The notes beneath the pieces were generated by a model. It was not told where the DNA came from and made no database searches. It saw nothing but the letters and a program-made list of their open reading frames with translations. From contig CAZPXM010000001.1 of NCBI GenBank assembly GCA_964591015.1, forward strand, positions 41,062 to 105,061: DNA of 64,000 bases, in the 5' to 3' direction. Numbering within the stretch: position 1 is the first letter of the stretch; each line of letters begins with the position of its first letter. Positions 19,934 to 62,833 of this stretch are shown here, one piece after another. Position numbers and translations under genes: made by a program. This DNA is from an uncultured Gemmatimonadaceae bacterium (lineage in GTDB: Bacteria > Latescibacterota > UBA2968 > UBA8231).

Positions 19934-20043
19934 AGCCGTACGCTCTCCGCGCCAGAAACACCATCGAGAAGGCTGCCCCGGGCTGGCGGCCGCAGCCGAG
20001 GCCGGCGCCGCCGGGCGTGGCGTGGTCCGCGGCGCGCCGCTTC

Positions 20044-20072: not shown

Positions 20073-20253
20073 GCTGCCGCGGCGCGGACCCCGGACCCCG
20101 TGTCGCCGGCCAGCGCGGGCGCCGGTGCGGGCGGCGCGGCGGGGGGGAGTCCGGCCCTGCCGCCTGGCTCTGGCGCGGTGTCTTGATCGCGTCGCTGCCG
20201 GGTGCTTACTTGACAGCCTCGACCCGACCCATCCGCCGGCTGCGAGGACGCCG

Positions 20254-31712: not shown

Positions 31713-35036
<3,324 letters not shown>

Positions 35037-37344: not shown

Positions 37345-37373
37345 TTGACACGTTAAAGAATATGTGCTATCGT
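37345..37373 (+). promoter_or_regulatory. Strong sigma70 promoter TTGACA-N17-TATCGT with extended -10 TG and upstream A-tract
   Basis: ttgaca cgttaaagaatatgtgc tatcgt in the only markedly AT-rich patch of the window. Confidence 0.75.
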
Positions 37374-37399
37374 TGAAACCAGACAGGAGCGACGATGCC

Positions 37400-37795
37400 G
37401 TGAGAAAGATCCTGGAGAAGTGTCCGGCCTGCGGCGCAGCGCTCGAGGTCACGCGACTCGGCTGCCGGCAGTGCCAGACGGTGATCGAGGGCGTTTTCGT
37501 GCCGTGCACCTTCTGCAAGCTGTCCCCGGACAGCCTGGAGTTCGTCACCACGTTCGTGCGCACCCGGGGCAACCTCAAGGAGATCGAGCGCGAGCTGGGC
37601 ATGTCGTATCCCACGGTACGGGGTCGACTGCAGGCGGTTCTGGAGGAGCTTGGCTTCGGCACCGAGGAGCAACAGGGCGAGCGCCCGCCTGGCGAACAGG
37701 AACTGGCGGCGCAGCGCCGCGCCATCCTGGCGCGGCTGGAGGAGGGCCGGATCAGCGTCGACGAGGCCGTCGTCGCGCTGGAGCGGCTTCCCTGA
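37400..37795 (+). CDS. DUF2089 family Zn-ribbon/HTH regulator with C-terminal SHOCT-like motif
   Basis: CPACG...CRQC, FVRTRGNLKEIERELGMSYPTVRGRL, RRAILARLEEGRISVDEA; GTG after AGGAG. Confidence 0.88.
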   Translation: MRKILEKCPACGAALEVTRLGCRQCQTVIEGVFVPCTFCKLSPDSLEFVTTFVRTRGNLKEIERELGMSYPTVRGRLQAVLEELGFGTEEQQGERPPGEQELAAQRRAILARLEEGRISVDEAVVALERLP

Positions 37796-37825
37796 GACAG
37801 AACACACGATGACGGAGGTGTCGCC

Positions 37826-38989
37826 ATGGACAGCGGAGAACGTCTCAGCGTCCTCACCATGCTGGCCGAGGGGAAGATCTCGGTGGACGAGGCCGAACGT
37901 CTGCTGCTGGCGCTCGGTCAAGCCGCTGGACCGGCAGCCGACAGCACTGGTGCCGCGGGGCAGGCAGGCGCCGGGGCGGCGCCGGCCGGCCACGACGGCA
38001 CGCGGGGCCTGGATCTGGAAGCGCTGGGGGCGCAGGTCCGGCGTGCGGGCAGCTCCCTGCAGGCCAGCGAGATCGGGCGCACGGTGAGCCGCGAGGTCGG
38101 CAAGGCGCTGGGATCGCTGCAGCGGGCCGACTGGGGCGGTCTGGCCAGCCGCATCGTCTCGCAGGTGACGGAAGCCGTCACGCAGGCTGTCGAGCATGCC
38201 GCTCCGCGCGTCCAGGTCGAGAAGGAGCAGGAGTGGTCCTTTGCGGGCGTCAACCTGAGGCGGCTGGCAGCGACGGTGGCCAACGGTCGCATCGAGGTCG
38301 AGGGAGGCGATGGCGAGCAGGTCTCGGTCCACGCCGTCGTGCGCGTGCGCGCCCGCGACCAGGCCGGCGCAGCGGCCGTCGCCGAGCAGGTCGTGCCGCG
38401 CGCGGTCGAGGAGGGCGACTGCCTGCGCCTGTTCGTCGAGCCCGACAAGCCCCCGAGCGGCTCGCAGGTGAGCGTCGCCTACCGCGTGCTGTGCCCGCGC
38501 TCCCTGCGGGCCGAGCTGCGGGTGGCGAACGGCAACGTGCGCTGCACCCGGATCGAAGGCGGAGCCCGGCTGGCGGCCACCAACGGCAATGTCCACGCCG
38601 AGCACTGCCGCGGCGAGCTGGACGCGCGGACGGTGAACGGCAACGTGGTGGCGCGGGTCGACGAACTGACCGCGGCTGGCTCGTTCGAGACCACCAACGG
38701 CAATGTGAGCGTGGACGTGCTGGGCGGTGGCGGCTCCCTGACGGCCACGTCGCAGAACGGGAACGTCCGGCTGTGCTTGCCTGCCGCGGCGAGCGCCGAC
38801 GTCGAGGCGCGCACGACGAACGGCACCGTGACGACCGAGCTGGCCATGTCCCGGGTCGTCGAGCAGAAGCGGAACGCCCTGGTGGGAACGATCGGCGAGG
38901 CCGCCGCCGAGATGCCGCAACTGCGCCTGCGCACGCTGAACGGCAACATCCACCTCGGCTCGACCCAACCCGAGGAGGCGGGACGATGA
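37826..38989 (+). CDS. SHOCT-like N-terminus plus DUF4097 (Toastrack) beta-repeat protein
   Basis: ERLSVLTMLAEGKISVDEAERLL, then repeated T/V-x-NG-N-V beta motifs (VANGRI, VANGNV, TNGNV, VNGNV, TTNGNV, SQNGNV, TTNGTV, TLNGNI). Confidence 0.88.
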   Translation: MDSGERLSVLTMLAEGKISVDEAERLLLALGQAAGPAADSTGAAGQAGAGAAPAGHDGTRGLDLEALGAQVRRAGSSLQASEIGRTVSREVGKALGSLQRADWGGLASRIVSQVTEAVTQAVEHAAPRVQVEKEQEWSFAGVNLRRLAATVANGRIEVEGGDGEQVSVHAVVRVRARDQAGAAAVAEQVVPRAVEEGDCLRLFVEPDKPPSGSQVSVAYRVLCPRSLRAELRVANGNVRCTRIEGGARLAATNGNVHAEHCRGELDARTVNGNVVARVDELTAAGSFETTNGNVSVDVLGGGGSLTATSQNGNVRLCLPAAASADVEARTTNGTVTTELAMSRVVEQKRNALVGTIGEAAAEMPQLRLRTLNGNIHLGSTQPEEAGR

Positions 38990-39801
38990 ACGCGGAGATG
39001 CGCAAGGTGCTGGCGCTGGTGGCGAGGAAGGCGATCACGCCTGCCGACGGCGAGCGGCTGCTGGCCGCCCTCGGGCAGCCGGAGCCCACAGGGCCGGAGG
39101 CGGCGCCGGCGCTGTCCGCAGGACTTGGCGAAGGCTCGGCGGCATCGCTGGCGGGCGCCCTGGCGGAGGGGGCGCTGCTGGAGGGGGCGCTGCTGGCGGG
39201 GGCGACCCTGGAGGGCGCCGACCTGCGCCACGCGGACCTGACCGACGCCGACCTGAGCGGCGCCAACCTGGAGGGTGCGGTGCTGGCCGACGCGGTGCTG
39301 CGCGGGGCCCGGCTGGTGCGGGCCAATCTGGAGGGCGCGCACCTGGACGCAGCGGTGGCTGCAGGAGCCGATCTGGGCGGCGCGAATCTGGAGAACTCGC
39401 GGCTGGAGGCCGCGCGCCTCGTCGGCGCCAGCCTGGCGGGCGCCAACCTGGAGAACGCCGTGCTGGCCGAGGCCGAGCTGTCCGACGCCGACCTAACCGG
39501 CGCCAATCTCGAAGGGGCCGACCTGCGGCGCGCGGTGCTGGCCGGTGCCCGGCTGGCCGGGGCCAACTGCGAGGGCCTGAGCGCCCCGGACGCCGACTGC
39601 TCGCAGGCCGACCTGGCGGGCGCCTTCCTCGGCGAGGCAGACCTGGACGGTGCCGACCTGCGCGGCGCGAACCTGGCCGGGGCCGTCGCCCCCAGGGTGC
39701 AGTGGCGTGGGCTGTGCCTGCGGGACGCGGACCTCCACGGGCGCGACCTGACGCACGGGGATCCCGGTGCCAGCGCCGGCGGCGGCGAGGCGCGCGGCTG
39801 A
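38986..39801 (+). CDS. SHOCT-like N-terminus plus pentapeptide-repeat (Rfr) protein
   Basis: EMRKVLALVARKAITPADGERLLAAL, then about 41 consecutive LxGAx-type pentapeptides; ATGA overlap with the upstream stop. Confidence 0.9.
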   Translation: MNAEMRKVLALVARKAITPADGERLLAALGQPEPTGPEAAPALSAGLGEGSAASLAGALAEGALLEGALLAGATLEGADLRHADLTDADLSGANLEGAVLADAVLRGARLVRANLEGAHLDAAVAAGADLGGANLENSRLEAARLVGASLAGANLENAVLAEAELSDADLTGANLEGADLRRAVLAGARLAGANCEGLSAPDADCSQADLAGAFLGEADLDGADLRGANLAGAVAPRVQWRGLCLRDADLHGRDLTHGDPGASAGGGEARG

Positions 39802-39889: not shown

Positions 39890-40786
39890 TCAGCGCTCCA
39901 GGCCGACGCCGAACTCGGCGCGGAAGGCGCGCCAGACTGCCGGATCGACCTCGGCTGTGGCTGCCTCGTACGCCTCTTCGACCTTCTCTTTGTTGTAGGG
40001 TCCCGGCATCACCAGCCCGTCGAAATCGGCGTGCAGGCAGAACTGCATGGCGAGATGGCGGATGTTGACGCCGCGATCGCGACACCACTGCCACATCGCG
40101 TGCGCCAGATAGGCCTGGGGCCGCGGCCGCGACAGGTCGGGCTCGCGTCCGCCCAGCAGCCCCATGCCGAAGACGCTGGCCATGATGACGCCGACGCCGC
40201 GGGCGCGCGCCAGCGGCAGCGTCGTGCGGGCCACCGACTGGTTGAGGAGCGTGTAGTCCAGGTAGGTGAGCACGATCTCGCAGTGGCCGGTCTCGATCAT
40301 CCGGCGGTGGAACTCGTGCTGGCGGACGCCGATGCCGAGGTGGCGGACCTTGCCCTCCTCCTTCATCTTCAGCAACTCGTCCAGGCAGGCTCCGGGCGCC
40401 AGCGGCACCTCGATGTCGCTGGGGTCGTGGATGAGCACCGAGTCCAGGTATTCCGTCTTCAGCAGTCGCAGGCTGTTCTCGACGCTCCAGCGCGTGCCGG
40501 CGGCGCTGAAGTCGCCGCGGCGCTCCGGGTGGGTGCCCGTCTTGGTTTCCAGGTACACCTTCTCGCGCCAGCCGCCCGCCAGCGCCAGCCCCACGCGACG
40601 TTCGCTCTGTCCGTACCCCGCCGACGTGTCGAGGAAGTCGATGCCCAGCTCGATGGCCCGCCGCACCCCTTCGATGGCGTCGCGGTCCGAGCTCTTGTCG
40701 CTGCCGAACCAGGCGCACCCGAGGCCGAGCACGCAGGGGGTCATGCCGGTGTTGCCGAGGCGCCTTCTGCCCAGTGTGCCGCTCAT
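39890..40786 (-). CDS. Aldo/keto reductase
   Basis: RRRLGNTG, GIDFLDTSAGYG.SE, ETKTG, SLRLLKTEYLDSVLIHDP, GKVRHLGIG. Confidence 0.9.
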   Translation of the reverse strand: MSGTLGRRRLGNTGMTPCVLGLGCAWFGSDKSSDRDAIEGVRRAIELGIDFLDTSAGYGQSERRVGLALAGGWREKVYLETKTGTHPERRGDFSAAGTRWSVENSLRLLKTEYLDSVLIHDPSDIEVPLAPGACLDELLKMKEEGKVRHLGIGVRQHEFHRRMIETGHCEIVLTYLDYTLLNQSVARTTLPLARARGVGVIMASVFGMGLLGGREPDLSRPRPQAYLAHAMWQWCRDRGVNIRHLAMQFCLHADFDGLVMPGPYNKEKVEEAYEAATAEVDPAVWRAFRAEFGVGLER

Positions 40787-40895
40787 TCGGTGTTCTCCTT
40801 GACCGGGACTGCGGCCCTGGTGGCCGCCAGTTGCCGCGCGCCGAGGCAATGAACCGCAGGCCGGGGCCGCGGTCAAGCCGCGGTGGCCGGGCCGG

Positions 40896-40924
40896 TTGAC
40901 AGCCAGGCGCCGAGCGGACACCTT
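40896..40924 (+). promoter_or_regulatory. Putative promoter TTGACA-N17-CACCTT for the M16 peptidase
   Basis: Perfect -35 and 17-bp spacer, weak -10. Confidence 0.4.
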
Positions 40925-41042
40925 AGCGCCGCCCGCCGACCGGCAAGATGCCTGCGCATCGGCCCGCCAGCGCCGTCCCTGGCGCAGCCGGTGTGAGCGG
41001 CAGCCGACAGGGAGCGGGTCGTCACCCCCCGGAGACTGCCCC

Positions 41043-43919
41043 ATGCAATCGTTGCGCGCCGTGGTCTGTGCTGCGGCCGTCGCGGTGGTGGCCGCCTGCG
41101 CCGGCAGACAGTCGCGGCCGAGCCTCCCCGCAGGAACGGCGGACACCGCGCCGCTTCCCGCCGGCATCCGGCCGTACCTCCAGCAGACGATCCCGCTGGA
41201 CCGGGCGCTCCACCACGGCACGCTGGCCAACGGCATGCGCTATCTGATCCGGAGGAACCAGCGGCCGGAGTCGCGGCTCGAGCTGCGTCTGGTGGTGCGC
41301 GTCGGCTCGGTGGTGGAAGCGGACCACGAACAGGGCTTTGCGCACGTCCTCGAGCACCTGGCGTTTCAGAGCACCCGGCACTTCGGCGGGCACGAGCTCG
41401 TCCAGTACCTCGAGTCGCTCGGCATCGCCTTCGGCCCGGATCTGAACGCCTACACCGGGTTCGACGCCACCGTGTACGAGCTCCGGGTGCCCACCGACTC
41501 GGCAGCCGTCGTGCAGACGGCGCTGCAGGTCCTGGCGGACTGGGCCGGGGGCATGCTGCTGCTTCCCGAGGAGGTCGACAGGGAGCGGCAGGTCATCATC
41601 GAGGAATGGCGTTCCGGCCGCGGGGCCGCTGCCCGTCTGCGCGACCAGCAGCTGCCGCTGCTGCTGTCCGGCTCCCGCTATGCCGAGCGTCTGCCGATCG
41701 GGCAGCTGGCGGTGCTGGACACCTTCCATCACGAGCAGCTGCGGGCCTTCCATCGGGCCTGGTACCGCCCCGACCTGATGGCGGTGATCGCGGTGGGCGA
41801 CTGCGATCCGGCATGGCTCCTGGAACAGATCCGCGACTGCTTCGGCGCGCTGGCGGCTGCTCCGGACGCTCCCGCGCGACCCGAATTCCCCGTGCCGCCC
41901 CACGCCCAGACGCTGTTCTCGATCGCCACCGACCCGGAGGCGACGGCGGCGCAGGTAGCGCTCTACACCAAGGCGGACGCGCGTCTCCAGGCGACCGTTG
42001 GCGACTACCGCCGCTACCTCGTCGAGCTGCTCTACTACCGCATGCTGAACCAGCGTCTGTACGAGCTGACCATGCTGGCCGAGCCGCCGTTCCTCAGCGC
42101 CGCGGCGGGCAACACCCGTCTGGTGGCGACGGCGGAGGCGCAGGTCCTGCGCTGCCAGACCACGAACGCCGGCGTCCTGGGCGGGCTGGCCGCGCTGGTG
42201 CGCGAGGCCCGCAGAGCGCGGTTGTACGGTTTCACCGCCACCGAGCTCGAGCGCGAGAAGAAGGACATGCTGCGCTATATGGACCAGGTGTACCGCGAGC
42301 GAGACAAGACCGAATCGGCGACGTATGCGGCCGAGTACATCCGGCATTTCCTCGATGCGGAGCCCACGCCGGGCCTCGAGTACGAGTACGGTCTGTACCG
42401 GACCTTTCTGCCGCAGATCACGCGGGAGGAGGTGGCCGCCAGCGCGGCCCAGTGGAACGCGGAGGCCAATCGCGTGGTGCTGGTCAGCATGCCCGCCGCC
42501 GTGGACGTCGCCGTGCCGACGGAAGCGATGCTCCGGCGTACCCTCGCCGAGGTGGAGGCCGAGACCATCGAGCCCTACATCGATGCGGCTCTCGACGGTC
42601 AGCTCGTCGAGCCGCCGCCCTCACCGGGGCGGATCGTCCACGAGTCCACCGTGCCCGAGCTGGGCCTCACGGTCTGGGAGCTGAGCAACGGTGTCCGCGT
42701 CAAGGTCAAGCCCACCGACTTCAAGAACGACGAGGTGCTGCTGGCCGCCGTCAGTCCCGGAGGGCACTCGCTGGTGGACGACGCGGACTTCATCGCGGCC
42801 TCGACCGCGGACGCGGTGGTGCGCGAGTCGGGCGTGGGCCGTTACGACAAGATCGCGCTGGAGAAGGCCCTGGCCGGCAGGATGGTGCAGGTCGTGCCGT
42901 GGATCGGCGAGCTGCAGGAGGGACTCAAGGGCGCCGCCTCGCCGGAGGACCTGGAAACGCTCTTCCAGCTCGTGTACCTGTACATGGTCGAGCCGCGCGC
43001 GGACAGCACGGCGTTCGCGTCGTACCAGCACTGGCTGGCGGGCATGATCGAGAATCGGGCCGCCAGCCCGGATGCAGCCTTCAGCGACACGGTCACGGCC
43101 ATCCTGTCGCAGCACCATCTCCGGGCCCGGCCCTGGTCGCCCGAGATGATCGCCGCGATGGACCTGCAGCGCTCGCTGGCCATCTACCGGCAGCGCATGG
43201 CGGCCGCCGGCGATTTCACGTTCTACCTGGTGGGCAACCTGGACCTCGAAGAGCTGCGCGGCCTGGTCTGCCGCTACCTGGGTGCCCTGCCGGCGGGCGG
43301 GCCGGGCGAGCGCTGGCGCGACGTGGGCATCGATCCGCCGCCGGGCGTCGTCGAGCGCGAGGTGCGCCGCGGGCTGGAGCAGAAGTGCTTCACCCAGATC
43401 ATCTTCGCCGGCGAACGCCCGTGGTCGTACGAGGAGGCGTTCGCGCTGGACGCGCTGGCCGCGGTGCTGCGCATCAGGCTCAGGGAGGTGCTGCGCGAGG
43501 GGCTGGGCGGCACGTACGGGGTGGGTGTCGGCGGCACGCTTCTCCATTATCCGGACGAGGAGTACCGGCTGGCGATCGGGTTCGGATGCGCGCCCGAGCG
43601 GCTGGAGGAGCTCACCGGCGCGGTGTTCGCCCAGCTCGACAGCATGGCCCTGGCGGGCCCGGACACCTCGCTGATCGAGCGGGTGCGTTCGGTCAAGCGG
43701 CGCCAGCACGAGGTCGAGTTGCGCGAGAACAGCTACTGGCTGGAGCTGCTCCAGGCCGCCGACTTCCACGGGCTGGAGCCCCAGCGCGTCCTCGAGCTGG
43801 ATCGCCAGCTTGCCGAGCTATCGCCCGACCTGCTGCGGGGCGCTGCGGCCCGGTACGTCGACAAGTCGCGCTACGTGCGCGTGGTGCTGCGGCCGGAGAC
43901 AGACGCCTCCCAGCAGTGA
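41043..43919 (+). CDS. pqqL: M16 family zinc peptidase (PqqL-like), probable lipoprotein
   Basis: LANGMRYLI, GFAHVLEHLAF (HxxEH), DLNAYTGFD.TVY, ERQVIIEE, second half LSNGVRV..KPTDFKNDE, LREVLREGLGGTY; lipobox VAAC19. Confidence 0.92.
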   Translation: MQSLRAVVCAAAVAVVAACAGRQSRPSLPAGTADTAPLPAGIRPYLQQTIPLDRALHHGTLANGMRYLIRRNQRPESRLELRLVVRVGSVVEADHEQGFAHVLEHLAFQSTRHFGGHELVQYLESLGIAFGPDLNAYTGFDATVYELRVPTDSAAVVQTALQVLADWAGGMLLLPEEVDRERQVIIEEWRSGRGAAARLRDQQLPLLLSGSRYAERLPIGQLAVLDTFHHEQLRAFHRAWYRPDLMAVIAVGDCDPAWLLEQIRDCFGALAAAPDAPARPEFPVPPHAQTLFSIATDPEATAAQVALYTKADARLQATVGDYRRYLVELLYYRMLNQRLYELTMLAEPPFLSAAAGNTRLVATAEAQVLRCQTTNAGVLGGLAALVREARRARLYGFTATELEREKKDMLRYMDQVYRERDKTESATYAAEYIRHFLDAEPTPGLEYEYGLYRTFLPQITREEVAASAAQWNAEANRVVLVSMPAAVDVAVPTEAMLRRTLAEVEAETIEPYIDAALDGQLVEPPPSPGRIVHESTVPELGLTVWELSNGVRVKVKPTDFKNDEVLLAAVSPGGHSLVDDADFIAASTADAVVRESGVGRYDKIALEKALAGRMVQVVPWIGELQEGLKGAASPEDLETLFQLVYLYMVEPRADSTAFASYQHWLAGMIENRAASPDAAFSDTVTAILSQHHLRARPWSPEMIAAMDLQRSLAIYRQRMAAAGDFTFYLVGNLDLEELRGLVCRYLGALPAGGPGERWRDVGIDPPPGVVEREVRRGLEQKCFTQIIFAGERPWSYEEAFALDALAAVLRIRLREVLREGLGGTYGVGVGGTLLHYPDEEYRLAIGFGCAPERLEELTGAVFAQLDSMALAGPDTSLIERVRSVKRRQHEVELRENSYWLELLQAADFHGLEPQRVLELDRQLAELSPDLLRGAAARYVDKSRYVRVVLRPETDASQQ

Positions 43920-45547: not shown

Positions 45548-47515
<1,968 letters not shown>

Positions 47516-47580
47516 GCGCTGCCGGGCGCTCGCCGGCGCCCCGCCGTGGCTCGCCTGTCCATTGCCCTTGGAGGTTGCCC

Positions 47581-50235
47581 ATGGTGTGGCGCGTGCCCCG
47601 TTCCCTGCACCAGTACTGCCGCGACGTCCTCCCGTTGCTGCTGGCGCACAGCAGCGGCGACCGCATGCTCGAGGCGGTGGCGGCGGTGCTGCGGTCCGAC
47701 CGCTGGAACTCCTTCGACCGGTTCCACGAGACCACGGAGACGCTGGTCGGCCGCTACCGGGCCGTGGGGGCCCAGGCAGAGGTGTACCCGGTCCAGACGG
47801 GAGGTCGGATCGGCAGCGGGCGCTGGGTGATCCAGGAAGCCGCGGACATTCTCGGTGCCAGCGTCGAGGTGGTGTCGCCCGTGCACCGGCGCGTGCTGGA
47901 CTACGCGGAGAATCCGTGGCACGTGATCCAGTGGTCGACCAGCACACCGGCGGCGGGGCTGGAGTGCCGGCTGGCGATCGTCGACGACATGGAGGAACTC
48001 GGGCGTCTGGGACCGGAGGGCCTGCGCGGCGCGGCGGTGCTGAGCAGACTGGGCGCCCGCGAACTGCTGCGGCCGCTGGCCGACCGGGGCGCGGCCGCGC
48101 TGATCGTCGACCGGGCCGCAGCCGCCGGCTCGCAGGCGCTGCAGTGGACGAAGTTCGGCTGGGGGGCCATCGCCCCGGAGGCGGCCTGCGCGCGGCTGGT
48201 GGGGTACGTGGTGAGCGCCGATCAGGGACGGCAGTTGCGCGAGCTGGCGCGTACCGAGGGCGAGGTGCGCCTGCGGCTGCGCGCCGACATCCGGCGGTAC
48301 GTCGGCACCCACGATGTGGTGAGCGGCCTGGTGCCGGGCAGCGGCGACCCGCAGGACGAGGTCTGGGCGATCGCCCACAGCGCCGAGCCCGGGGCGGTGG
48401 ACAACGCCTCGGGCGTGGCCGTGTGCCTCGAGATCGCCCGCGTCCTGGAGGAGCTGATCCGCGCCGGCCGCCTGCGGCGCCCGAAGCGCTCGATCCGCCT
48501 GGTGAACGCCTACGAGTGCTACGGGTTCTTCGCCTTCCTGGAGCGGGTGCGGCGCCTGCAGCCGCCGCTGGCCGGCGTGTGCCTGGACGCCCTGGGCACC
48601 AGGCCCGAGGCGTGCGACGGGCGCCTGGAGTGGCATGCGACCGTGCCGGCCTCCGCCGGCTTCGTCGACCGCGCCGGCGCGACCCTGCTGCGCGCCGCGC
48701 TGCGCCAGCGCCGGCCCGGATACCGGCTCCACTTGGGCGCGTTCCAGTCCACGGCGGACACGCTGATCGGCGATCCCCGCTATGGCTTCCCGTGTCCGTG
48801 GCTGACGTCGATGTACCGGCGGCAGGGCAGCTATGCGGCCTACCACAACTCCGCCGACACGGTCGCCCTGCTCGACGGTGCGTGCCTCGAGGCGATCGCC
48901 GGCGCCATGGCGGGGTACCTGCACTATCTGGCCGACATGGACACGGAGGACGTGCTGGCGTGGACCGCGTGCGAGGCGGCGCTGGCGGCCCGCGCGCTCG
49001 GCGAGCAGGAACCGGCCAGTGCCGCGGCAGCGTCCGTGCGCGCGGGCTATGCCGCCACGGAGGCGCGGCTGCGGCGCTGGCTGTGGGGGGGCGAGCGGCC
49101 GGCAGTCATGGCGCGGCTGCGAACAGCCAGGGCGCGCGTGGAGCAGGCCGCGCCGGGCGGCTGGCAGCGACGGCCGGTGCCCCGCGCGCTGGCGGCCGCA
49201 GTGCGCCGCGTGCCGCGGCGGACCGCGCCGCTCACGCCGACGCTGGAGAACACGCCGGAGGCGCTGGCGGCGCGCCTGCGGCGAGCGGGGTTGGATCCGT
49301 GGACCCTCTACTGGGCCGACGGCCGCCGCAGCATCGCGGAGATTGCGGCCCTGGCGGCCGGGGACCGTCCGGGTGCCAAGGGCGGTCCGGCGGCCGGCGA
49401 CTGGAAGCAGGTGCTGCAGCGCCACGCGGAGTTCTTCGCCGTGCACGCCGAGCTGGGCTACGTCCAGCTGATGGACCCGCAGCAGATGTGGACGCGGGCC
49501 CGGCTCACCGGCGACCTGCGGCGTCTGGGCGTGCGGCCTGGCATGGATCTGATGGTGCACAGCTCGCTGTCCGCGCTCGGCCCGGTGGCCGGCGGCGCCG
49601 AGACCGTGGTGGCGGCCCTATTGGCCGCGATCGGTCCGCGCGGCACCCTCTTGATGCCGTCCTTCAACCATCGCGCCGCGCGGGTGTACAACCCGCTGAC
49701 GACGCCCACGACCAACGGCGCCATCCCCGATGCCATGTGGCGGCGCCCCGATGCGGTGCGGAGCCTGCACCCGACGCACGCGGTGGCCGCGATCGGACCC
49801 CGCGCCGAGCACTACTGCCGCGGGCACGTGGAGGCGGGCGTGTGGGCCGAGGACAGCCCCATCGGCCGGCTCATCCACGGCGGCGGCTACCTGCTGTGCC
49901 TGGGTACCACGCACAACACCTCGACCGCCTACCACGTGGCGGAGATCTCGATGCCCTGCCGGTGCATCGACATGTTCGGGGCGGACGATGTGGTCGTGAT
50001 GCCGGACGGCAACCTCCAGCGCGTGCGCGGCCTGGCGTTCCGCGCCGGCCCGTGCCCGGTTCCCACCAGCAAGCTCGACGAGACGCTGGACCGGCGCGGC
50101 CTGCAGCGCCGGGGCAAGGTGGGACAGGCGGACAGCGCGCTGTGCCGCGCCATCGACCTGTGGCGCGTGCGCCGCGAGCACCTGCGCGGCGTCTGCGCGA
50201 CATGCACGGTGCGGCCGCAGCGGGCCCGCGGTTGA
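47581..50235 (+). CDS. Fusion: PA-domain + M28/DUF4910-like aminopeptidase-fold + winged helix + AAC(3)-family N-acyltransferase
   Basis: AHSAEPGAVDNASG, YEC, CLDALG, AYHNSADT; WADGRRSIAEIA wHTH; then LRRLGVRPGMDLMVHSSLSALG, GTLLMPSF, RSLHPTHAVAAIG, LCLG..HNTSTAYHVAE in one uninterrupted frame. Confidence 0.85.
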   Translation: MVWRVPRSLHQYCRDVLPLLLAHSSGDRMLEAVAAVLRSDRWNSFDRFHETTETLVGRYRAVGAQAEVYPVQTGGRIGSGRWVIQEAADILGASVEVVSPVHRRVLDYAENPWHVIQWSTSTPAAGLECRLAIVDDMEELGRLGPEGLRGAAVLSRLGARELLRPLADRGAAALIVDRAAAAGSQALQWTKFGWGAIAPEAACARLVGYVVSADQGRQLRELARTEGEVRLRLRADIRRYVGTHDVVSGLVPGSGDPQDEVWAIAHSAEPGAVDNASGVAVCLEIARVLEELIRAGRLRRPKRSIRLVNAYECYGFFAFLERVRRLQPPLAGVCLDALGTRPEACDGRLEWHATVPASAGFVDRAGATLLRAALRQRRPGYRLHLGAFQSTADTLIGDPRYGFPCPWLTSMYRRQGSYAAYHNSADTVALLDGACLEAIAGAMAGYLHYLADMDTEDVLAWTACEAALAARALGEQEPASAAAASVRAGYAATEARLRRWLWGGERPAVMARLRTARARVEQAAPGGWQRRPVPRALAAAVRRVPRRTAPLTPTLENTPEALAARLRRAGLDPWTLYWADGRRSIAEIAALAAGDRPGAKGGPAAGDWKQVLQRHAEFFAVHAELGYVQLMDPQQMWTRARLTGDLRRLGVRPGMDLMVHSSLSALGPVAGGAETVVAALLAAIGPRGTLLMPSFNHRAARVYNPLTTPTTNGAIPDAMWRRPDAVRSLHPTHAVAAIGPRAEHYCRGHVEAGVWAEDSPIGRLIHGGGYLLCLGTTHNTSTAYHVAEISMPCRCIDMFGADDVVVMPDGNLQRVRGLAFRAGPCPVPTSKLDETLDRRGLQRRGKVGQADSALCRAIDLWRVRREHLRGVCATCTVRPQRARG

Positions 50236-50272: not shown

Positions 50273-50301
50273 TTGAGACGGTGCGGCAAGGCTCCTATAC
50301 T
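50273..50301 (+). promoter_or_regulatory. sigma70 promoter TTGAGA-N17-TATACT for the NSS transporter
   Basis: ttgaga cggtgcggcaaggctcc tatact. Confidence 0.7.
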
Positions 50302-52855: not shown

Positions 52856-54340
52856 ATGCGGATCCTGTTCATCGACATCGACACCCTGCGGCCGGATCAT
52901 CTGTCCTGCTACGGCTATCACCGGCACACCTCGCCGCACATCGATGCCGTGGCGGCCGAGGGCGTGCGCCTGACGGACTACTATGCGTCGGACACGCCCT
53001 GCCTGCCGAGCCGGACGGCGCTGTTCACCGGCCGCTTCGGCGTGTGCACGGGGACGGTCAACCACGGCGGCGAGTACGCGGACCTGCCGCTGGAAGGGGC
53101 GGCGCGCGGCTTCCGCCAGGGCTTCGCCGCGACGGCGCTGGGCGCCGTCCTGCGCCGCGCCGGCCTGCACACCGCGACCATCAGCCCCTTCCCCAGTCGA
53201 CACACGGCGTACCACATGCTGTACGGCTTCACCGAGGCCTACGACACGGGCAGCGGCGGCCTCGAGAACGCGGACGACGTGTATCCGCCGGCGCGGCGCT
53301 GGCTGCAGGCCAACGGAGCCCGCGACAACTGGTTCCTGCACGTCAACTTCTGGGATCCGCACACGCCCTACGATCACCCCGAGAGCCACGGCAACCCGTT
53401 CGCCACCGAGCCGCTGGAGCCGTGGCTCACCGAGGAGCTGATCGCCCGGCAGCGCGAGAGCTTCGGGCCGCACAGCGCCCGGGAGGTGCCGGGCGAGACC
53501 GACGAGCTGCCGCCCCGGTGGCGGATGGGGCGCGGCAGCATCGCCAGCCTGGCGGACGCCAAGGCCCACTATGATGGATACGACACCGGCATCCATTTCG
53601 TCGACCAGTACGTGGGGCGGCTCGTCCAGGACCTGCGCGACCTGGGCCTCTACGAGGACACGGCCATCGTCATCACTGCGGACCATGGCGAGAACCAGGG
53701 CGAACTGAATGTCTGGGGAGACCACCAGACCGCCGATTACGTCTGCAACCGCATCCCGCTGATCGTCCGCTGGCCCGGGGTCACGGATGGGCAGGCCGGG
53801 CGGGCCCTGGGCGGCCTGCACTACAACGTCGATCTGGCGGCGACGCTGGCCGAGCTGGTGGGTGCGGAGGCGCCGGCGGTCTGGAACGGCCGCAGCTTCG
53901 CCGCAGCCCTGGCGCGCGGCGAGGCTGCCGGGCGCGACTTCCTGGTGCTCGGCCACGGGGCCTGGAGCTGCCAGCGCAGCGCGCGCTGGGGCGACTACCT
54001 GCTGATCCGCACCTACCACACCGGGATGAAGGAGTTCCCGGAGTACATGCTCTTCGACGTGGCCCGCGATCCGCACGAGCTGCAGAGCCTGGCGGCGACG
54101 CGCCCCGAGCTGGTGGCGCACGGCCTGCTGCTGATCGACCGCTGGCTCGGCGCGCGCATGCCCGAGGCGCTGCGCGGCGATCCCTTCTGGGGCATCATCC
54201 GCGAGGGCGGCCCGCTGCACGCCAACGAGCGCCACCCGCGCTGGGGCCGCTATCTGGAGCGCCTCCGGCAGACGGGCCGCGCCCACCATGCGCAGCGGCT
54301 CGAGCGGTTCGGCGGCCGGCCGTTCACCAGCGGTCTGTAG
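52856..54340 (+). CDS. Formylglycine-dependent sulfatase
   Basis: ILFIDIDTLRPDHL, CLPSRTALFTG (CxPxR), WDPHTPY, ITADHGE, IPLIVRWPG. Confidence 0.93.
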   Translation: MRILFIDIDTLRPDHLSCYGYHRHTSPHIDAVAAEGVRLTDYYASDTPCLPSRTALFTGRFGVCTGTVNHGGEYADLPLEGAARGFRQGFAATALGAVLRRAGLHTATISPFPSRHTAYHMLYGFTEAYDTGSGGLENADDVYPPARRWLQANGARDNWFLHVNFWDPHTPYDHPESHGNPFATEPLEPWLTEELIARQRESFGPHSAREVPGETDELPPRWRMGRGSIASLADAKAHYDGYDTGIHFVDQYVGRLVQDLRDLGLYEDTAIVITADHGENQGELNVWGDHQTADYVCNRIPLIVRWPGVTDGQAGRALGGLHYNVDLAATLAELVGAEAPAVWNGRSFAAALARGEAAGRDFLVLGHGAWSCQRSARWGDYLLIRTYHTGMKEFPEYMLFDVARDPHELQSLAATRPELVAHGLLLIDRWLGARMPEALRGDPFWGIIREGGPLHANERHPRWGRYLERLRQTGRAHHAQRLERFGGRPFTSGL

Positions 54341-54439: not shown

Positions 54440-56410
54440 ATGCGAGCGGCAGAGCTGCGTTTCCGCCAGATCCACCTGGACTTCCACACGAGCGAGCACA
54501 TCACGCGCATCGGCGCGGACTTCGACGCCGGGGAGTTCGCCGAGACGCTGGCCCGGGCGCGTGTGGACTCGGTGACCTGCTTCGCGCGCTGCCACCACGG
54601 CTGGATCTACTTCGACACGCAACGCCACCCGGAGCGCCGGCATCCGCACCTCCAGCGCAACCTGCTGCGCGAGCAGATCGAGGCCTGCCACGCGCGCGGC
54701 ATCCGGGTGCCGATCTACGTGACCGTCCAGTGGGATCACTTCACGGCCGGCCAGCATCCCGAGTGGCTGTGCCTGACCGCCGACGGTCAGCTCCAGGGGA
54801 CGGCGCCGTACCAGGCCGGCTTCTACCGCAAGCTGTGCGTCAACACGCCCTACGTGGACTGGCTGAAGGAGCACGTGCAGGAGATTCTCGATACCTTGCC
54901 GGTCGACGGCTTCTTCTTCGACATCGTGCAGCCCAACGACTGCTCCTGCGAGCACTGCCGCCGTGGCATGGTGGAGGCCGGTCTCGATCCGTCCGACCCG
55001 GCGGCGCGGCAGGCGTACGGCCTGGAGACCGTGAACGCCTTCAAGCGCGACATGACCCTCTTCGTCCGGCAGCAGAACGCCGACTGCACGCTGTTCTACA
55101 ACGCCGGGCACATCGGGCCCCGGCACCGCCACGTCGTGGACGCCTACACCCACTTCGAGCTGGAGTCGCTGCCGAGCGGCGGCTGGGGCTACCTGCACTT
55201 CCCGCTCACCATGCGCTACGCCCGCGGGCTGGGCCGGGACTGCCTGGGCATGACCGGCAAGTTTCACACCACCTGGGGCGATTTTCACTCGTTCAAGAAC
55301 CCGGCGGCGCTGGAGTTCGAGTGCTTCCAGATGCTGGCGCTGAACGCCAAGTGCTCGGTGGGGGACCAACTCCATCCCACCGGCCGCCTGTGCGCCCACA
55401 CGTACGCGCTGATCGGCAGGGTCTACCGCCAGGTAGAGCGCAAGGAGCCGTGGTGCCGGGGCGCCCGGCCGGTGACCGAGATCGGCGTGTACCACCCCGA
55501 GGAGTTCGCCGGCGGCCACAGCCGCCTGCCGGAGGCGGCGCTGGGGGTCGTCCGCATGCTCCAGGAGGGGCGGCACCAGTTCGACCTCATCGATACGCAC
55601 GCCGAGCTGGACGGCTATCGCCTGGTGGTCCTGCCCGAATGCATCCCCCTGGACGCAGCGCTGCGGGCGCGTCTCGAGAGCTTCCTGGCCGGCGGTGGGG
55701 CGGTGATCGGGGCCTACCGCGGCGGCGTGGACGCCGCAGGCAGGGGGCTCGGCTTCACGGTCAAGGGAGAGGCGCCCTGCGCGCCCGACTTCGTCGTGCC
55801 CGCCGGCGCGCTCGCGGCCGGGCTGGCGCCGACCGCCCACGTGATGTACGCGCGCGGTCTGGAGCTCGAGCCCGGTGCCGGAGCCGCGGTGCTCGCCTGG
55901 ACCGAGGTCCCTTACTTCGAGCGCTCGTGGCGCCACTTCTGCTCGCACCGGCACACGCCTTCGTCGGGGCGGCGGGGCGGGCCCGCGGCGATTCGCTGCG
56001 GCGAGGTGATCCACTTCGCGCACCCGCTCTTCAGCCAGTACGCGCGCAACGCGCCGAGCTGGTGCAAGCGGCTCTTTCTCAACGCAGTCGCGGCGCTGCT
56101 GCCGGAGCCGCTCGTGCGCGCCGAGGGCCCCAGCGGCCTGGTGGCGGCGCTCAACCGTCAGACCGAGCCCAGCCGGCTGGTGCTGCACCTGCTGTACTAC
56201 GTCCCCGAGCGTCGCGGCGCCGATTTCGACGTGGTGGAGGACGTGGTGCCGCTGCACGAGGTGCCCATCTCGGTGCGCGCGGGAGCGGTCGGCCGGGTGG
56301 TGCTGGTACCCGAGGGAGAGACGCTGCCGCACGCGATGCGAGGCGGCCGCTGCGAGTTCGTGGTGCCGCGCATGTGCGGCCACTGCATGGTGGCCCTGGA
56401 GCCGGCCTGA
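54440..56410 (+). CDS. GHL6-family glycoside-hydrolase-like protein with beta-galactosidase trimerisation-like domain
   Basis: FRQIHLDFHTSEHI, FARCHHGW, VDGFFFDI, ELESLPSGGWGY, GMTGKFHTTWGDF, GDQLHPTG. Confidence 0.82.
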   Translation: MRAAELRFRQIHLDFHTSEHITRIGADFDAGEFAETLARARVDSVTCFARCHHGWIYFDTQRHPERRHPHLQRNLLREQIEACHARGIRVPIYVTVQWDHFTAGQHPEWLCLTADGQLQGTAPYQAGFYRKLCVNTPYVDWLKEHVQEILDTLPVDGFFFDIVQPNDCSCEHCRRGMVEAGLDPSDPAARQAYGLETVNAFKRDMTLFVRQQNADCTLFYNAGHIGPRHRHVVDAYTHFELESLPSGGWGYLHFPLTMRYARGLGRDCLGMTGKFHTTWGDFHSFKNPAALEFECFQMLALNAKCSVGDQLHPTGRLCAHTYALIGRVYRQVERKEPWCRGARPVTEIGVYHPEEFAGGHSRLPEAALGVVRMLQEGRHQFDLIDTHAELDGYRLVVLPECIPLDAALRARLESFLAGGGAVIGAYRGGVDAAGRGLGFTVKGEAPCAPDFVVPAGALAAGLAPTAHVMYARGLELEPGAGAAVLAWTEVPYFERSWRHFCSHRHTPSSGRRGGPAAIRCGEVIHFAHPLFSQYARNAPSWCKRLFLNAVAALLPEPLVRAEGPSGLVAALNRQTEPSRLVLHLLYYVPERRGADFDVVEDVVPLHEVPISVRAGAVGRVVLVPEGETLPHAMRGGRCEFVVPRMCGHCMVALEPA

Positions 56411-57304: not shown

Positions 57305-58342
57305 TCAGACGCGCCAGGGCTGGAGCCGGCCGGTCACGGCAACGTGCTGGCCCTGGGTGACGCGCGCCGCCCAGGCCTGGGCGACCACGATTCCATCCAC
57401 GCCGGCGCGGATGGGAAACGGCTCCAGGTCGATGCGCTCGAAATCGTGCAGCCAGCCGATGACCTGGCCTGCCGTGACCTCGCAGCCGCAGGGCAGCGCC
57501 TCCTCGTAGTGGCCCGAGAAGGGCGCGACGGAGAAGCACTCCCGGTCGACCATGGCCGCCTTGCGCTGCGTGCCGTCGCGGTGGTGGTCGATCCGGTCGA
57601 TGGCGCCCTCCAGCTGCCCGTGGTGGATGGCGGCGGCCAGCACGCCGTGGCGGCCCCAGCGCACGCCGCTGGCCTGCACGGCCCGGCCCCAGCCCAGCTC
57701 CGCGCCCACGGTGATCTTGCCCAGGCGCTCGGCCTCGCTGGTCAACAGGCCGGGCGTCTCGTTCTGATAGGTGAGCACCAGCGGTGTGCCGAACCAGCGC
57801 GCGGTGGTCTCGCTCTGCCGCGCCTGCCCGGCGTCGGCGACCTCGTGACAGCTGGCACACGGCAGGAAGCGGGTGTCGGCCCCGCCTGCGTGCAGATCGA
57901 GGACGACGTGCACGCGCGGCCAGATGGCCTCGCGGACAAAGGCGGCGATGCGGTGCGTGATGCCCGCCAGGGCCGCGGTCCGGCCGGCACCGTCGACGAA
58001 GGCGCGGTTGAGATTGGCCCCGTCGGCGGCGTTCGAGTCGCGCGTGCCGTGGCGAAAGGCCGCCGCATTCAGCACCGGCACGAGCAGGATGCGGCCGAGG
58101 ACCTGCGCCGCGTCGATCTCCCTGAGCAGACGACGCAGCGCGATCGGCCCCTCGTACTCGTCGCCGTGGGTGGAACCGAAGGCTGCCAGCCCCTGGCCGG
58201 GACGGGCGCGCGGGCCGACGAAGACGGTGAGCGGTATCAGATAGTCGCCCCAGATGGAGTCGTGCTCCAGCGCTACCCAGTAGTCGCGCCTTCCGGGCGA
58301 GTCGAGATCGAGTTCTGCGGGCCTGGCGATCTGGCGTTCCAT
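57305..58342 (-). CDS. Succinylglutamate desuccinylase/aspartoacylase (M14-like) family protein
   Basis: STHGDEYEG, PVLNAAAF, NLNRAF, VLDLHAG, AELGWG, C-terminal biotinyl-like APFSG. Confidence 0.88.
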   Translation of the reverse strand: MERQIARPAELDLDSPGRRDYWVALEHDSIWGDYLIPLTVFVGPRARPGQGLAAFGSTHGDEYEGPIALRRLLREIDAAQVLGRILLVPVLNAAAFRHGTRDSNAADGANLNRAFVDGAGRTAALAGITHRIAAFVREAIWPRVHVVLDLHAGGADTRFLPCASCHEVADAGQARQSETTARWFGTPLVLTYQNETPGLLTSEAERLGKITVGAELGWGRAVQASGVRWGRHGVLAAAIHHGQLEGAIDRIDHHRDGTQRKAAMVDRECFSVAPFSGHYEEALPCGCEVTAGQVIGWLHDFERIDLEPFPIRAGVDGIVVAQAWAARVTQGQHVAVTGRLQPWRV

Positions 58343-58460
58343 GCGATTGGCTCCCGTCGGCAAGGGTGTCGGCTGGATCCTCGTCCGGCGGCGCTCGCCG
58401 GCGCGCGGCGCACTGGCGGCGGGTGCTGCCGGGCACGGGCTGGCCGCTGCCCGGCCGGAT

Positions 58461-61566: not shown

Positions 61567-61870
61567 GCGGTCCTGGTCAGCTTCTCGGTCGGTCGCGCCG
61601 GCGAGGCCGAGGCCGACGGCGCCGCCGGACACCGCACGGACACCGCGCGGCGACCAGGCTCCACCCCGGCGCGGGCACCCCGCGCGCCGCCGCCAAGCGG
61701 GCGGCGGGCGGGCGCGGCGAAGATAGGCGCCGCACGGCCGCCGAACAACCCCGCGGCGAGAGCCGGTGCCGCGGCCCGGGCCGCCTGGCGCAGATGGCCC
61801 GCAGAGCCGTCGGTGCGTAGCTTACCGGCCCGATCGCAGCCGGCGTGTCCCATCTTCCCCGGAGTCGCCC

Positions 61871-62833
61871 GTGACCCCACGCGAGCGGTTCATCCATGCG
61901 CTGGAGCGCCGCCCACCCATCCCGGGCCGCGTGCCCACCTTCGAACTGGTGTTCTTCTTGACGATGGAGGCGTTCGGCAAGGTCCATCCCTCCCACCGTC
62001 ACTACGCGCAGTGGGACCAGATGGAGGAGAAGGAGCGGCAGCTCCACCGCCGCGACATGGCGGAGCTGTTCATCGCCACGGCGCGCCGCTTCGAGCACAG
62101 CGCGATCTTCCTCCACCCCAATCCCGGCAGCGAGGCGGAGACCCTGCGCCTGATCGATCTGGTGCGCGACCTCAGCGGCGACACCTACTTCCTCATGCTG
62201 CACGGCGACGCGACCTACGGAGTGCCCAGCGGCAGCCACATGGAGCAGTGGTGCGCGCGGCTGGTGGAGGAACCGCAGCGGCTCAAGCAGGAGGCGGCCG
62301 CGATGGTGGACCAGGCGCTGGAGCGCGGCGCGCGCCTGGCCGCGCACGGCGGCCTGGACGGCTTCGCCCTGTGCGCAGACTACTGCTTCAACACCGGGCC
62401 GTTTCTGTCGCCGGCGCAGTTCGGCGAGTTCGTGACTCCCTATCTGGCGCGCCTGATCCGCGGCTACCGGGCACAGGGGCACTACGTGATCAAGCACACC
62501 GACGGCAACATCATGCCGATCCTCGACCAGCTGGTCGAGGGGCCCCCCCACGCGCTCCACTCGCTGGATCCCCAGGGCGGAGTGGACATGGCCGAGGTGA
62601 AGCGACGGGTGGGCGACAGGGTGTGCCTGATCGGCAACGTGAACTGCGGCCTGCTGGACTCCGGGACGGACGCGGATGCCATCGCCTCGGCCCGCTATGC
62701 GCTGCGTCACGGCATGCCCGGCGGCGGCTACGTATTCTCCACCAGCAACTGCGTGTACACGGGCATGCGCCTGCGCCGCTACGAGCTGATCCTCGACGTG
62801 TGGCGGGGCGAGGGCAACTACCCGCAATCGTGA
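61871..62833 (+). CDS. URO-D / methyltransferase-fold family protein
   Basis: [65 protein letters not shown]. Confidence 0.88.

Follow-up and report, generated by a model that had tools for sequence, protein, structure and literature searches.

In a 64,000-nucleotide stretch of contig CAZPXM010000001.1 from an uncultured Gemmatimonadaceae bacterium (assembly GCA_964591015.1; the whole stretch is called the window hereafter), the gene at positions 47581-50235 of the forward strand encodes one protein of 884 amino acids (aa) that joins an M28-type metal-dependent hydrolase to a complete AAC(3)-type N-acetyltransferase (NAT). Comparison with its homologues shows that this fusion is a conserved, multi-phylum M28-like/Antibiotic_NAT protein with an unusual Glu-Cys metal-site motif and an acceptor site that is probably not of the aminoglycoside type. 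Both folds are well known and the architecture is already present in public databases under automatic names, while our literature search found no paper describing or characterising the family. We tentatively favour the reading that the protein is a cytoplasmic two-site enzyme, which would combine the hydrolytic unmasking of an amine with the N-acetylation of a small metabolite in nutrient processing.

The frame at 47581-50235 (+) runs unbroken through 884 codons to a stop codon at 50233-50235, as the initial annotation of the gene from its sequence alone had described it. The window has a GC content of 70-76% over its whole length, the third-position GC of the fusion open reading frame (ORF) is 0.93, and a gene call based on this measure places the ORF at 47512/47581-50235 (+). 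ATG 47581 is the supported start, because the N-termini of all 19 homologues in a first alignment coincide with it and a Shine-Dalgarno-like GGAGG (47570-47574, +), found by direct reading of the sequence, lies 6 nt before it; the same two observations rule out GTG 47512 as the start. The motifs quoted in the initial annotation were all recovered in the translation, namely AHSAEPGAVDNASG (H266, D274), E312, D336, Y421-H422, VHSSLS, MPSF, RSLHPTH, and STAYHVAE. Neither a stop nor a misassembly was found at the fusion junction, and the C-terminal domain does hit PF02522, so that the fusion proposed at the outset is genuine; misassembly or a frameshift at the junction is ruled out by the co-linear architecture in many genomes, closed chromosomes included. 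A cytoplasmic location is likely for the protein, since no signal-peptide-like segment is present at its N-terminus.

An AlphaFold2 model built on 74 homologues, with a mean predicted local distance difference test (pLDDT) of 86 and a predicted template-modelling (TM) score of 0.89, divides the protein into domains that are connected by a few residues only, without any long linker. For each of them we give the mean identity to the window protein, taken across 73 homologues for the M28 core and the NAT domain. The protein begins with an N-terminal helical cap (aa 1-61; 47581-47763, +; 53%), modelled with helices at 7-15, 17-23, 26-39, and 48-61 and with pLDDT values of up to 98. It is followed by the first segment of the M28-like catalytic domain (aa 62-110; 47764-47910, +; 62%), which has predicted strands at 65-72, 87-99, and 103-107 and matches M28 aminopeptidases in Foldseek, by a PA-like insert that would form an apical or lid domain (aa ~111-240, with approximate boundaries; 47911-48300, +; 49%), delimited by Foldseek and the family profile, and by the M28-like catalytic core (aa 241-452; 48301-48936, +; 68%), where Pfam places Peptidase_M28 (PF04389) at aa 267-444 with 33.1 bits, just over the cut-off of 21.3. 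A helical linker domain with three long helices in the model (aa 453-530; 48937-49170, +) is the least conserved part of the protein (27%). The alignment then delimits a small alpha/beta domain with a W..WADGxR motif (aa 531-632; 49171-49476, +; 44%), in which D580, G581, and R583 are near-invariant in the wider family and a variable loop at aa ~597-602 is modelled at low confidence.

The Antibiotic_NAT domain of AAC(3) fold (aa 633-884; 49477-50232, +; 68%) starts right after this small domain. PF02522 covers aa 658-868 and positions 1-231 of the 232 in the model with E=6.2e-47 and 160.5 bits against a cut-off of 25, which bears out the complete AAC(3)-type domain of the initial annotation, and the PDB sequence matches and Foldseek assign the same fold. 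In Foldseek, the C-terminal part retrieved AAC(3)-IVa, -IIIa/b, -II, and -Xa as well as FrbF and YokD/BA2930 at TM scores of 0.71-0.79, which are target-normalised and refer to the predicted model.

Against the PDB, the N-terminal half matched the PA-containing M28 aminopeptidases 2ek8, 3iib, PaAP, and BSAP/YwaD (6hc6) with E values of 4e-18 to 5e-15, the top alignments spanning 450-520 columns, and it also matched the M28B enzymes NAALADase-L, GCPII, and GCPIII. The family profile aligned aa 121-310 with residues 98-298 of the 3iib chain. An M28 fold in which a PA insert occupies the canonical position is thus supported by the predicted structure and by profile alignment, and with it the PA domain that had been proposed; the Pfam sequence search gave no PA or DUF2172 match for the insert. 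The proposed M28/DUF4910-like identity held for M28, which passes its threshold, but less so for DUF4910 (PF16254), which scores 18.9 bits and stays under its cut-off of 26.6. Likewise, 3k9t, a DUF4910 structure, was matched by the family profile at E=0.14, compared with 7e-6 for NAALADase-L, and was absent from the top 50 Foldseek structural matches. The winged helix of the initial annotation, which corresponds to the small alpha/beta domain, was not confirmed. Pfam searches of isolated segments gave neither an HTH_47 nor another match at E up to 10, there was no PDB profile match, and a separate AlphaFold2 model of aa 453-634 (pLDDT 86) had no significant Foldseek match, the best E value being 5. 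The secondary structure, with a strand, three short helices, a long helix, and a strand, is merely compatible with a winged helix.

A search of 5.8 billion proteins yielded 378 hits, the best 120 of which were examined. All of these are 856-903 aa long, share 53-65% identity with the query over 96-100% of its length, and carry PF02522, and PF04389 or PF16254 is also found on most, so there are at least 120 protein clusters of this length with the same architecture. They bear database names such as 'AAC(3) family N-acetyltransferase', 'DUF4910 domain-containing protein', and 'aminoglycoside N3'-acetyltransferase/aminopeptidase-like protein'. When a collection with a single genome for each species was scanned, 134 stretches encoding a relative came up, and the 80 loci that were kept have a near full-length match at 49-64% identity, closed chromosomes of 4-8 Mb being among them. 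These loci come from metagenome-assembled genomes (MAGs) labelled Latescibacterota, Gemmatimonadota, Planctomycetota/Phycisphaerae, Poribacteria, Zixibacteria, and Handelsmanbacteria; Latescibacterota, Gemmatimonadota, and Planctomycetota are the main phylum labels of the fused homologues, and the closest relatives of the window protein are MAGs labelled with one of the first two. On one contig (JAYZFI010000035.1), two paralogous fusion genes (loci L065 and L067) lie ~93 kb apart in unlike neighbourhoods. Sequence conservation indicates that the fusion is ancient and under purifying selection along its entire length.

The N-terminal module was also searched alone against 1.84 billion representatives clustered at 50% identity, which yielded 1,278 relatives with an E value of 1e-3 or lower, 169 of them at 1e-30 or lower. 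Among the 99 listed representatives of the full module, 14 are fused, while 85 are 547-738 aa long, lack the NAT domain, and end 1-83 residues (mostly 1-36) past the small alpha/beta domain. The module of ~620-630 aa is therefore an autonomous unit that is sometimes fused. Many of the stand-alone relatives carry both PF04389 and PF16254 labels. When the loci of 82 stand-alone-type relatives were scanned with a hidden Markov model of the NAT domain, 79 had no AAC(3)-like ORF within the available flank of up to 6 kb, and the remaining three turned out to be two fusions and one adjacent NAT fragment. Two stand-alone proteins, P0123 (49% identity) and P0128 (43%), lie inside contigs of 65 kb and 13 kb, respectively, with neither a truncation nor a NAT neighbour. 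Antibiotic_NAT was present on all seven of the long distant relatives tested by Pfam, and some distant fused relatives have above-threshold DUF4910 matches.

These counts bear on the Rosetta-stone argument of the initial annotation, according to which the fusion shows that the two activities, otherwise encoded by separate neighbours, act on one substrate. The precedent was correct: in Campylobacter, Cj1295 is described as aminopeptidase-like and Cj1296/7 as an N-acetyltransferase (PMC3068675), and DUF4910 genes, including those of Clostridium, are linked to aminosugar N-acetyltransferase genes, with occasional fusions to sugar-modifying enzymes (PMC4000134). Within the fused clade, coupled function is plausible because both active sites are intact, but the premise of neighbouring genes fails for the unfused relatives, as 79 of the 82 loci demonstrate. 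As to how often the fusion arose, neighbour-joining with Fitch parsimony gave at least 11 state changes on a topology that is not trusted at ~30% identity. The divergences of the N-terminal module and the NAT domain correlate with r=0.91, a value driven by near-versus-far groups, and the distant fused NAT domains are as far from that of the window protein as AAC(3)-IVa is. Because these distant domains are so divergent and the tree is not trusted, the data are compatible either with one ancient fusion followed by losses or with several fusions.

The residues of the M28-like site were located in the gene with their codons checked: H266 (48376-48378), D274 (48400-48402), E312-C313 (48514-48519), D336 (48586-48588), and H422 (48844-48846), all on the forward strand. 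In the profile alignment, H266 and D274 fall on the H...D motif of NAALADase-L, the Asp being the bridging residue; by the known order of M28 motifs, E312-C313 would correspond to the 'EE' pair of general base and zinc ligand, and D336 and H422 to the remaining ligands. The site residues are invariant in the 74 fused homologues. Across 106 fused and stand-alone representatives at ~25-50% identity, D336 is conserved in all, H266, D274, and E312 in 104 each, H422 in 103, D426 in 101, and E269 in 95. Compared with the full M28 set of five co-catalytic zinc ligands and a base Glu, four ligands and E312 are present, and the Glu ligand is replaced by C313. This Cys is invariant in the 74 sequences of the fused clade and is found in 55 of the 106 wider representatives, followed in frequency by Ile, Met, and Phe; most of those without the Cys have a hydrophobic residue there. 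From this conservation, the M28-like site is almost certainly functional, though it would not be a textbook binuclear M28 centre, and its chemistry may differ from that of a classical binuclear aminopeptidase because the second Glu of 'EE' is a Cys.

The active site of the NAT domain is complete by the same measure. Its motifs are encoded at 49558-49575 (HSSLSA, of VHSSLS) and 49924-49944 (TAYHVAE), both on the forward strand. The family motif Tx-phi-H-phi-AE (PMC8956665) is present as T782-A-Y-H785-V-A-E788, in which H785 and E788 are invariant and T782 is a Thr in 73 of the 74 homologues; H785 aligns with the catalytic H154 of AAC(3)-IVa. The His and Glu are kept even in fused relatives whose N-terminal module shares only ~25-28% identity. 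A cluster of Cys residues, C795 (49963-49965), C825 (50053-50055), and C872-x-x-C875 (50194-50205), likewise forward-strand codons, is invariant, and H867 is a His in 66 of the 74. Group 1 enzymes of the family have a structural zinc site near Cys190 and in the C-terminal extension (PMC8956665), and in the alignment to AAC(3)-IVa, C825 coincides with its Cys pair. The cluster may constitute a structural zinc site like theirs.

Whether this domain acts on aminoglycosides is a different matter. Its PDB sequence matches are AAC(3)-IVa (E=8e-31, 33% identity), FrbF, and YokD, and from NCBIfam only AAC(3) models respond, all far under their cut-offs (AAC_3_IV 136 against 420; AAC_3 120 against 270; II 92 against 480; VIII 86 against 560; VIa 59 against 675). 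AAC(3)-IVa contacts its aminoglycoside through W63, D67, E185, C190, and E249 (PMC8956665). In one pairwise alignment, W63 corresponds to F695, which keeps the aromatic character, D67 to A699, where the family has Ala, Gly, or Ser, and E185 to A819, which is Ala in 71 of the 74. The isoelectric point (pI) of the NAT domain has a median of 7.9 and is 9.3 in the window protein, whereas the corresponding part of AAC(3)-IVa has a value of 6.0, and R721, R722, R727, R821, and R864 are invariant or nearly so. The full architecture was found on none of 72,556 plasmids, where the NAT part alone matched AAC(3) genes at no more than 41% identity. A polycationic aminoglycoside is thus an unlikely acceptor, because small neutral residues take the place of the D67 and E185 contacts and the charge of the domain ranges from near-neutral to basic, and an acceptor with an acidic group seems more plausible. 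These data speak against the aminoglycoside-like substrate suggested initially, and the low NCBIfam scores and the absence from plasmids lend good support to the accompanying caution that the gene need not confer resistance.

Comparison with known systems places both halves of the protein within familiar folds. With AAC(3)-IVa and Group 1 (6mn3/6mn4/6mn5; PMC8956665) the NAT domain shares the fold (TM 0.75-0.77, 31-33% identity), the Tx-phi-H-phi-AE motif, the VHSS motif on the CoA side, the Cys that lines up with the Cys189/190 pair, and a C-terminal CxxC that would fit the zinc site of Group 1. Unlike AAC(3)-IVa, it sits behind a 630-aa hydrolase, is neutral to basic, has Ala/Gly/Ser and Ala at the contact positions, and is encoded on chromosomes of uncultured environmental phyla, not on mobile elements. 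FrbF (3sma) and YokD/BA2930 (2nyg, 3e4f), whose substrates, where known, are not aminoglycosides, share the fold (TM 0.73-0.79) and the catalytic dyad, and illustrate that the Antibiotic_NAT fold serves small-molecule N-acetylation outside resistance; in contrast to the fusion protein they are single-domain, and the phosphonate biosynthetic cluster in which FrbF is found has no equivalent here.

On the N-terminal side, the PA-domain M28 aminopeptidases (2ek8 of Aneurinibacillus AM-1, 3iib of Shewanella, B. subtilis YwaD/BSAP 6hc6, and P. aeruginosa PaAP) and the M28B enzymes NAALADase and GCPII have the same H...D...E...D...H order and the same position of the PA-type insert, and in GCPII a helical domain follows the catalytic domain as it does in the fusion protein. 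Most of these enzymes are secreted or membrane-anchored, whereas the fusion protein has no signal peptide; it furthermore shares only 12-17% identity with them and differs in the Cys in place of the second 'EE' Glu, the N-terminal helical cap, and the small C-terminal alpha/beta domain. The DUF4910/DUF2172/HTH_47 proteins, exemplified by C. acetobutylicum CA_C2195 (3k9t) and C. jejuni Cj1295, resemble the module in their M28-related core, inserted lid, and small C-terminal domain, in the weak DUF4910 similarity of the fusion, and in their published linkage to N-acetyltransferases. They are shorter, however, at ~435 aa against the ~630 aa of the module, and the NDP-sugar (nucleoside-diphosphate-sugar) and glycosyltransferase loci in which they occur are not those of the fusion family.

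Directly upstream of the fusion gene in the window lies an ABC-F ATPase of the long type (45548-47515, +), with two ABC domains, ABC_tran_Xtn, and a weak match to the C-terminal domain, and directly downstream a symporter of the SNF family for Na+-coupled transport, with a probable ATG at 50369 (MANREHW...) and extending to 51739 (+). The latter is probably transcribed separately, because a promoter-like site of its own (TTGAGA-17-TATACT, 50273-50301, +) lies in the gap. Farther downstream come a D-2-hydroxyacid dehydrogenase, a sulfatase with an SGSH_C domain, and a GHL6 hydrolase, and elsewhere in the window there are GH2, GH127, Gfo/Idh/MocA, and aldo-keto reductase genes, M16 and M42 peptidases, and an AstE/AspA-type deacylase. 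The window is rich in glycan-degrading genes, which lie at 350-2596, 31713-35033 (-), 52856-54340, and 54440-56410 and comprise a GH127-like enzyme, a GH2 beta-galactosidase, the sulfatase with its N-sulfoglucosamine-sulfohydrolase C-terminal domain, and GHL6. The AstE/AspA-type zinc deacylase (succinylglutamate desuccinylase/aspartoacylase; 57305-58363, -) lies 7 kb downstream of the fusion and is of interest only for the acyl-protection hypothesis considered below. Two genes of the URO-D-like (uroporphyrinogen-decarboxylase) fold are found at 20017-21402 and 61766-62833.

When 18 of the window neighbours were searched by tblastn against the 80 fused loci, ABC-F recurred in 13 (counted within 10 kb), Fe-ADH_2 in 11, M16 in 5, the sulfatase in 3, and the 2-hydroxyacid dehydrogenase in 2, and a homologue of the SNF symporter in none. 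The adjacency of ABC-F may represent old synteny rather than a functional link. De novo clustering of the neighbourhoods gave clade-level synteny only, which rules out a conserved operon partner. In most of the ~21 loci of clade A, the fusion gene at its 3' end adjoins or overlaps the gene of a DUF6785/DUF6784 membrane protein. In clade B (~14 loci), a GH20b-domain protein, Ldh_2, the fusion, and a class-III aminotransferase (Aminotran_3) follow each other on the same strand with gaps of ~30-250 bp; loci of this type include L030, L035, L039, L041, L042, L046, L052, L053, and L058, where a UVR-domain protein and a GTPase that, on reading its sequence, resembles HflX come next. Clade C has Fe-ADH_2 and ABC-F upstream and GH123, GNAT, PIG-L, Amidohydro_2, a cyclase, or a sulfatase nearby. 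One clade (L007, L009, L011, L013, L017, and others) contains a gene set of bacterial-microcompartment (BMC) type 1-6 kb upstream of the fusion, in which BMC shell, EutN-like, PduL-like phosphotransacylase, aldehyde dehydrogenase, rhamnose-mutarotase-like, and FAH-family proteins were recognised by sequence reading, not by Pfam.

Distant fused lineages adjoin GH94 (twice), rhamnosidase-like and URO-D-like genes, SSF or MFS transporters, Amidohydro_1/3, and a DAO-type oxidoreductase. At one such locus (L167, 2974-6889), two Amidohydro_1/Amidohydro_3 genes, which are D-aminoacylase- or NagA-like, and a DAO/FAD oxidoreductase come after the fused homologue P0219 (946 aa); at another (L166), a URO-D-like gene at 13010-14155 lies two genes downstream of the fused homologue and is accompanied by GH94 and an SSF symporter, and GH94 is also found near the distant fused homologue P0287. 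Around 80 stand-alone loci, the recurrent clusters within ~6 kb are GH20, GH42-like, Gfo/Idh/MocA, a TonB-type outer-membrane protein, Aminotran_3, and a metallophosphoesterase, each at no more than nine loci, and the immediate neighbours spread over 91 Pfam families among 97 proteins, Metallophos being the commonest with seven and none being an informative partner. The recurring themes are uptake, glycan breakdown, often by hexosamine-related families, and enzymes of amines and amino acids, none of them universal.

Among the annotated neighbours in the 80 fused and 80 stand-alone loci, in five further fused contigs, and in the annotated parts of the window, there was no nucleotidyltransferase, no epimerase or dehydratase of NDP-sugars, and no glycosyltransferase or polysaccharide exporter; for the stand-alone loci, the top neighbour clusters and the immediate neighbours were covered. 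The glycan-modification context that had been suggested for the gene was therefore not borne out, as none of the neighbourhoods examined is an NDP-sugar or glycosyltransferase locus.

Some other features of the window are recorded here. On the forward strand (37364-39801), a run of three adjacent genes encodes a DUF2089 zinc-ribbon/helix-turn-helix protein, a 'toastrack' protein of SHOCT-like/DUF4097 type, and a protein with pentapeptide repeats, and looks like a small regulatory or stress module. The ORFs of an aldo-keto reductase (39890-41236, -) and a two-domain M16 peptidase of 1007 aa (40896-43919, +) overlap by ~340 bp at their 5' ends, and therefore at least one of the two start codons was mis-set by the mechanical ORF call. 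Scans of the 64-kb window for tRNA and Rfam families gave no tRNA gene and no family at the gathering threshold.

We propose that residues 1 to ~630 form a self-contained, divergent metallohydrolase of the M28 clan, composed of the core, a PA-like lid, a helical domain, and the small alpha/beta domain, and that the last ~250 residues form an acetyl-CoA-dependent N-acetyltransferase with a His/Glu catalytic dyad. Both sites would work in one pathway on a small, imported metabolite that bears an amine: the metallohydrolase may remove an N-terminal aminoacyl or an N-acyl group and so unmask the amine, and the NAT domain would next acetylate the amine of that molecule or of its product, amounting to capping or acyl exchange. 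The acceptor would probably bear an acidic group instead of being a polycationic aminoglycoside, and the role would be nutrient processing amid transporters, glycoside hydrolases, sulfatases, dehydrogenases, and aminotransferases, neither resistance nor the biosynthesis of surface glycans. Essentially the same chemistry, acyl transfer plus deacylation or peptidolysis, had been put forward in the initial annotation and is retained here, but it is moved from glycan biosynthesis and aminoglycosides to catabolic metabolism. Several observations weigh against this proposal. The module mostly occurs without a NAT domain or NAT neighbour and clearly serves a purpose by itself, which would allow for a loose coupling. 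None of the neighbours is maintained from clade to clade, so that each association may reflect one ancestral arrangement. Where the canonical M28 'EE' pair has its second, zinc-binding Glu, this protein has a Cys and many relatives have a hydrophobic residue, the loop with H422 is modelled at low confidence, and the argument from charge and contact residues hangs on the single pairwise alignment to AAC(3)-IVa.

Some of these points would be explained if the acetyltransferase alone were catalytic and the M28-like module had a non-hydrolytic role in recognition, scaffolding, or oligomerisation, as in the transferrin receptor, or if domains with unrelated substrates had been fused by chance. The wider family lacks the second Glu of 'EE', the region around aa 390-430 has low model confidence, the module is found mostly without the NAT domain, and CA_C2195-type relatives have been argued not to be conventional peptidases (PMC4000134). 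We nevertheless consider this unlikely, as conservation of H266, D274, E312, D336, and H422 in at least 97% of 106 divergent representatives is hard to explain without chemistry, the M28 core is conserved as strongly as the NAT domain, and the fusion persists over several phyla. The gene order of clade B, where at 13-14 loci the fusion lies between Ldh_2 and a class-III aminotransferase on the same strand, could instead be taken to indicate an acyl-protection cycle with a logic like that of ArgA/ArgJ-ArgD-ArgE, DapD-DapC-DapE, and AstA-AstC-AstE. The NAT domain would then protect the amino group of an amino acid or diamine, the class-III aminotransferase and a dehydrogenase would remodel the rest, and the M28-like site would deacetylate; the substrate could be an imported amino acid, a diamine, or an amino-sugar acid. 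ArgE and DapE, which act alongside class-III aminotransferases, belong to the MH-clan metallohydrolases. A cluster of such aminotransferases lies beside 7 of the 80 stand-alone loci, GNAT proteins are immediate neighbours in 3, the distant fused homologue followed by two Amidohydro_1/3 genes and a DAO-type oxidoreductase would fit, and so would the D-2-hydroxyacid dehydrogenase, the amino-acid-type SNF symporter, and the AstE/AspA-type deacylase downstream in the window, as well as the basic, Arg-rich NAT domain, which suits a carboxylate-bearing acceptor. Yet the aminotransferase link in one fused clade counts as one evolutionary event and most contexts lack it, the known deacylases of such pathways are M20 and not M28 enzymes, and no pathway intermediate can be named, and a cycle of this kind is in our view unlikely. 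In a related variant, the fusion would 'repair' de-N-acetylated or N-desulfated hexosamines by N-acetylation and thereby allow GH20 and GH123 enzymes to act on them, as these generally require the 2-acetamido group.

The model of the initial annotation, in which a Cj1295/CA_C2195-type enzyme removes an N-acyl group from an amino or nonulosonic sugar that is then re-acylated for a surface polysaccharide or glycoprotein, draws on the proposal that Cj1295, which adjoins the N-acetyltransferase Cj1296/7, cleaves the C5 acetamido group of pseudaminic acid to make way for a new acyl group (PMC3068675), on the linkage and occasional fusion of DUF4910 and aminosugar N-acetyltransferase genes (PMC4000134), and on the DUF4910 matches, weak in this protein and above threshold in some distant fused relatives. 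Only a slim chance can be given to it, considering that no NDP-sugar, glycosyltransferase, or exporter gene was seen among the annotated neighbours examined, that DUF4910 stays below threshold here with DUF2172 and HTH_47 absent, and that 3k9t is not among the top 50 structural matches. A genuine AAC(3) for resistance to aminoglycosides or other antibiotics, with an accessory peptidase domain, would accord with the database name 'aminoglycoside N3'-acetyltransferase', the intact catalytic motif, and the fact that the best solved relative (E=8e-31, 33% identity) is AAC(3)-IVa, which confers broad-spectrum resistance. It is nonetheless highly improbable: the score of 136 bits lies far from the 420-bit cut-off for AAC(3)-IV, the equivalents of D67 and E185 are small and neutral in a domain that is not acidic, the architecture is missing from the 72,556 plasmids and is chromosomal in free-living uncultured lineages, together with the 630-aa hydrolase module, and family members such as FrbF demonstrate that aminoglycosides are not the only substrates of this fold.

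It is routine in metagenomics to count AAC(3)-fold genes among those for aminoglycoside resistance. The evidence gathered here suggests that this family is a metabolic enzyme, and matches of this kind would then inflate estimates of the environmental resistome. The family offers an experimental handle on Antibiotic_NAT enzymes outside resistance and on the M28/DUF4910-like 'aminopeptidase-like' proteins such as Cj1295 and CA_C2195, whose chemistry is hypothetical, and with both sites on one polypeptide, coupled deacylation and acylation can be assayed. If a protection cycle were at work, it would be one built from unrelated folds, AAC(3) and M28 in place of GNAT/LbH and M20, and if hexosamine N-acetyl repair were the role, the fusion would be a soluble bacterial counterpart of the lysosomal HGSNAT. 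The fusion is abundant in Latescibacterota, Gemmatimonadota, Planctomycetota, and Poribacteria, phyla that are known almost only from MAGs and for which knowledge of metabolic pathways is thin.

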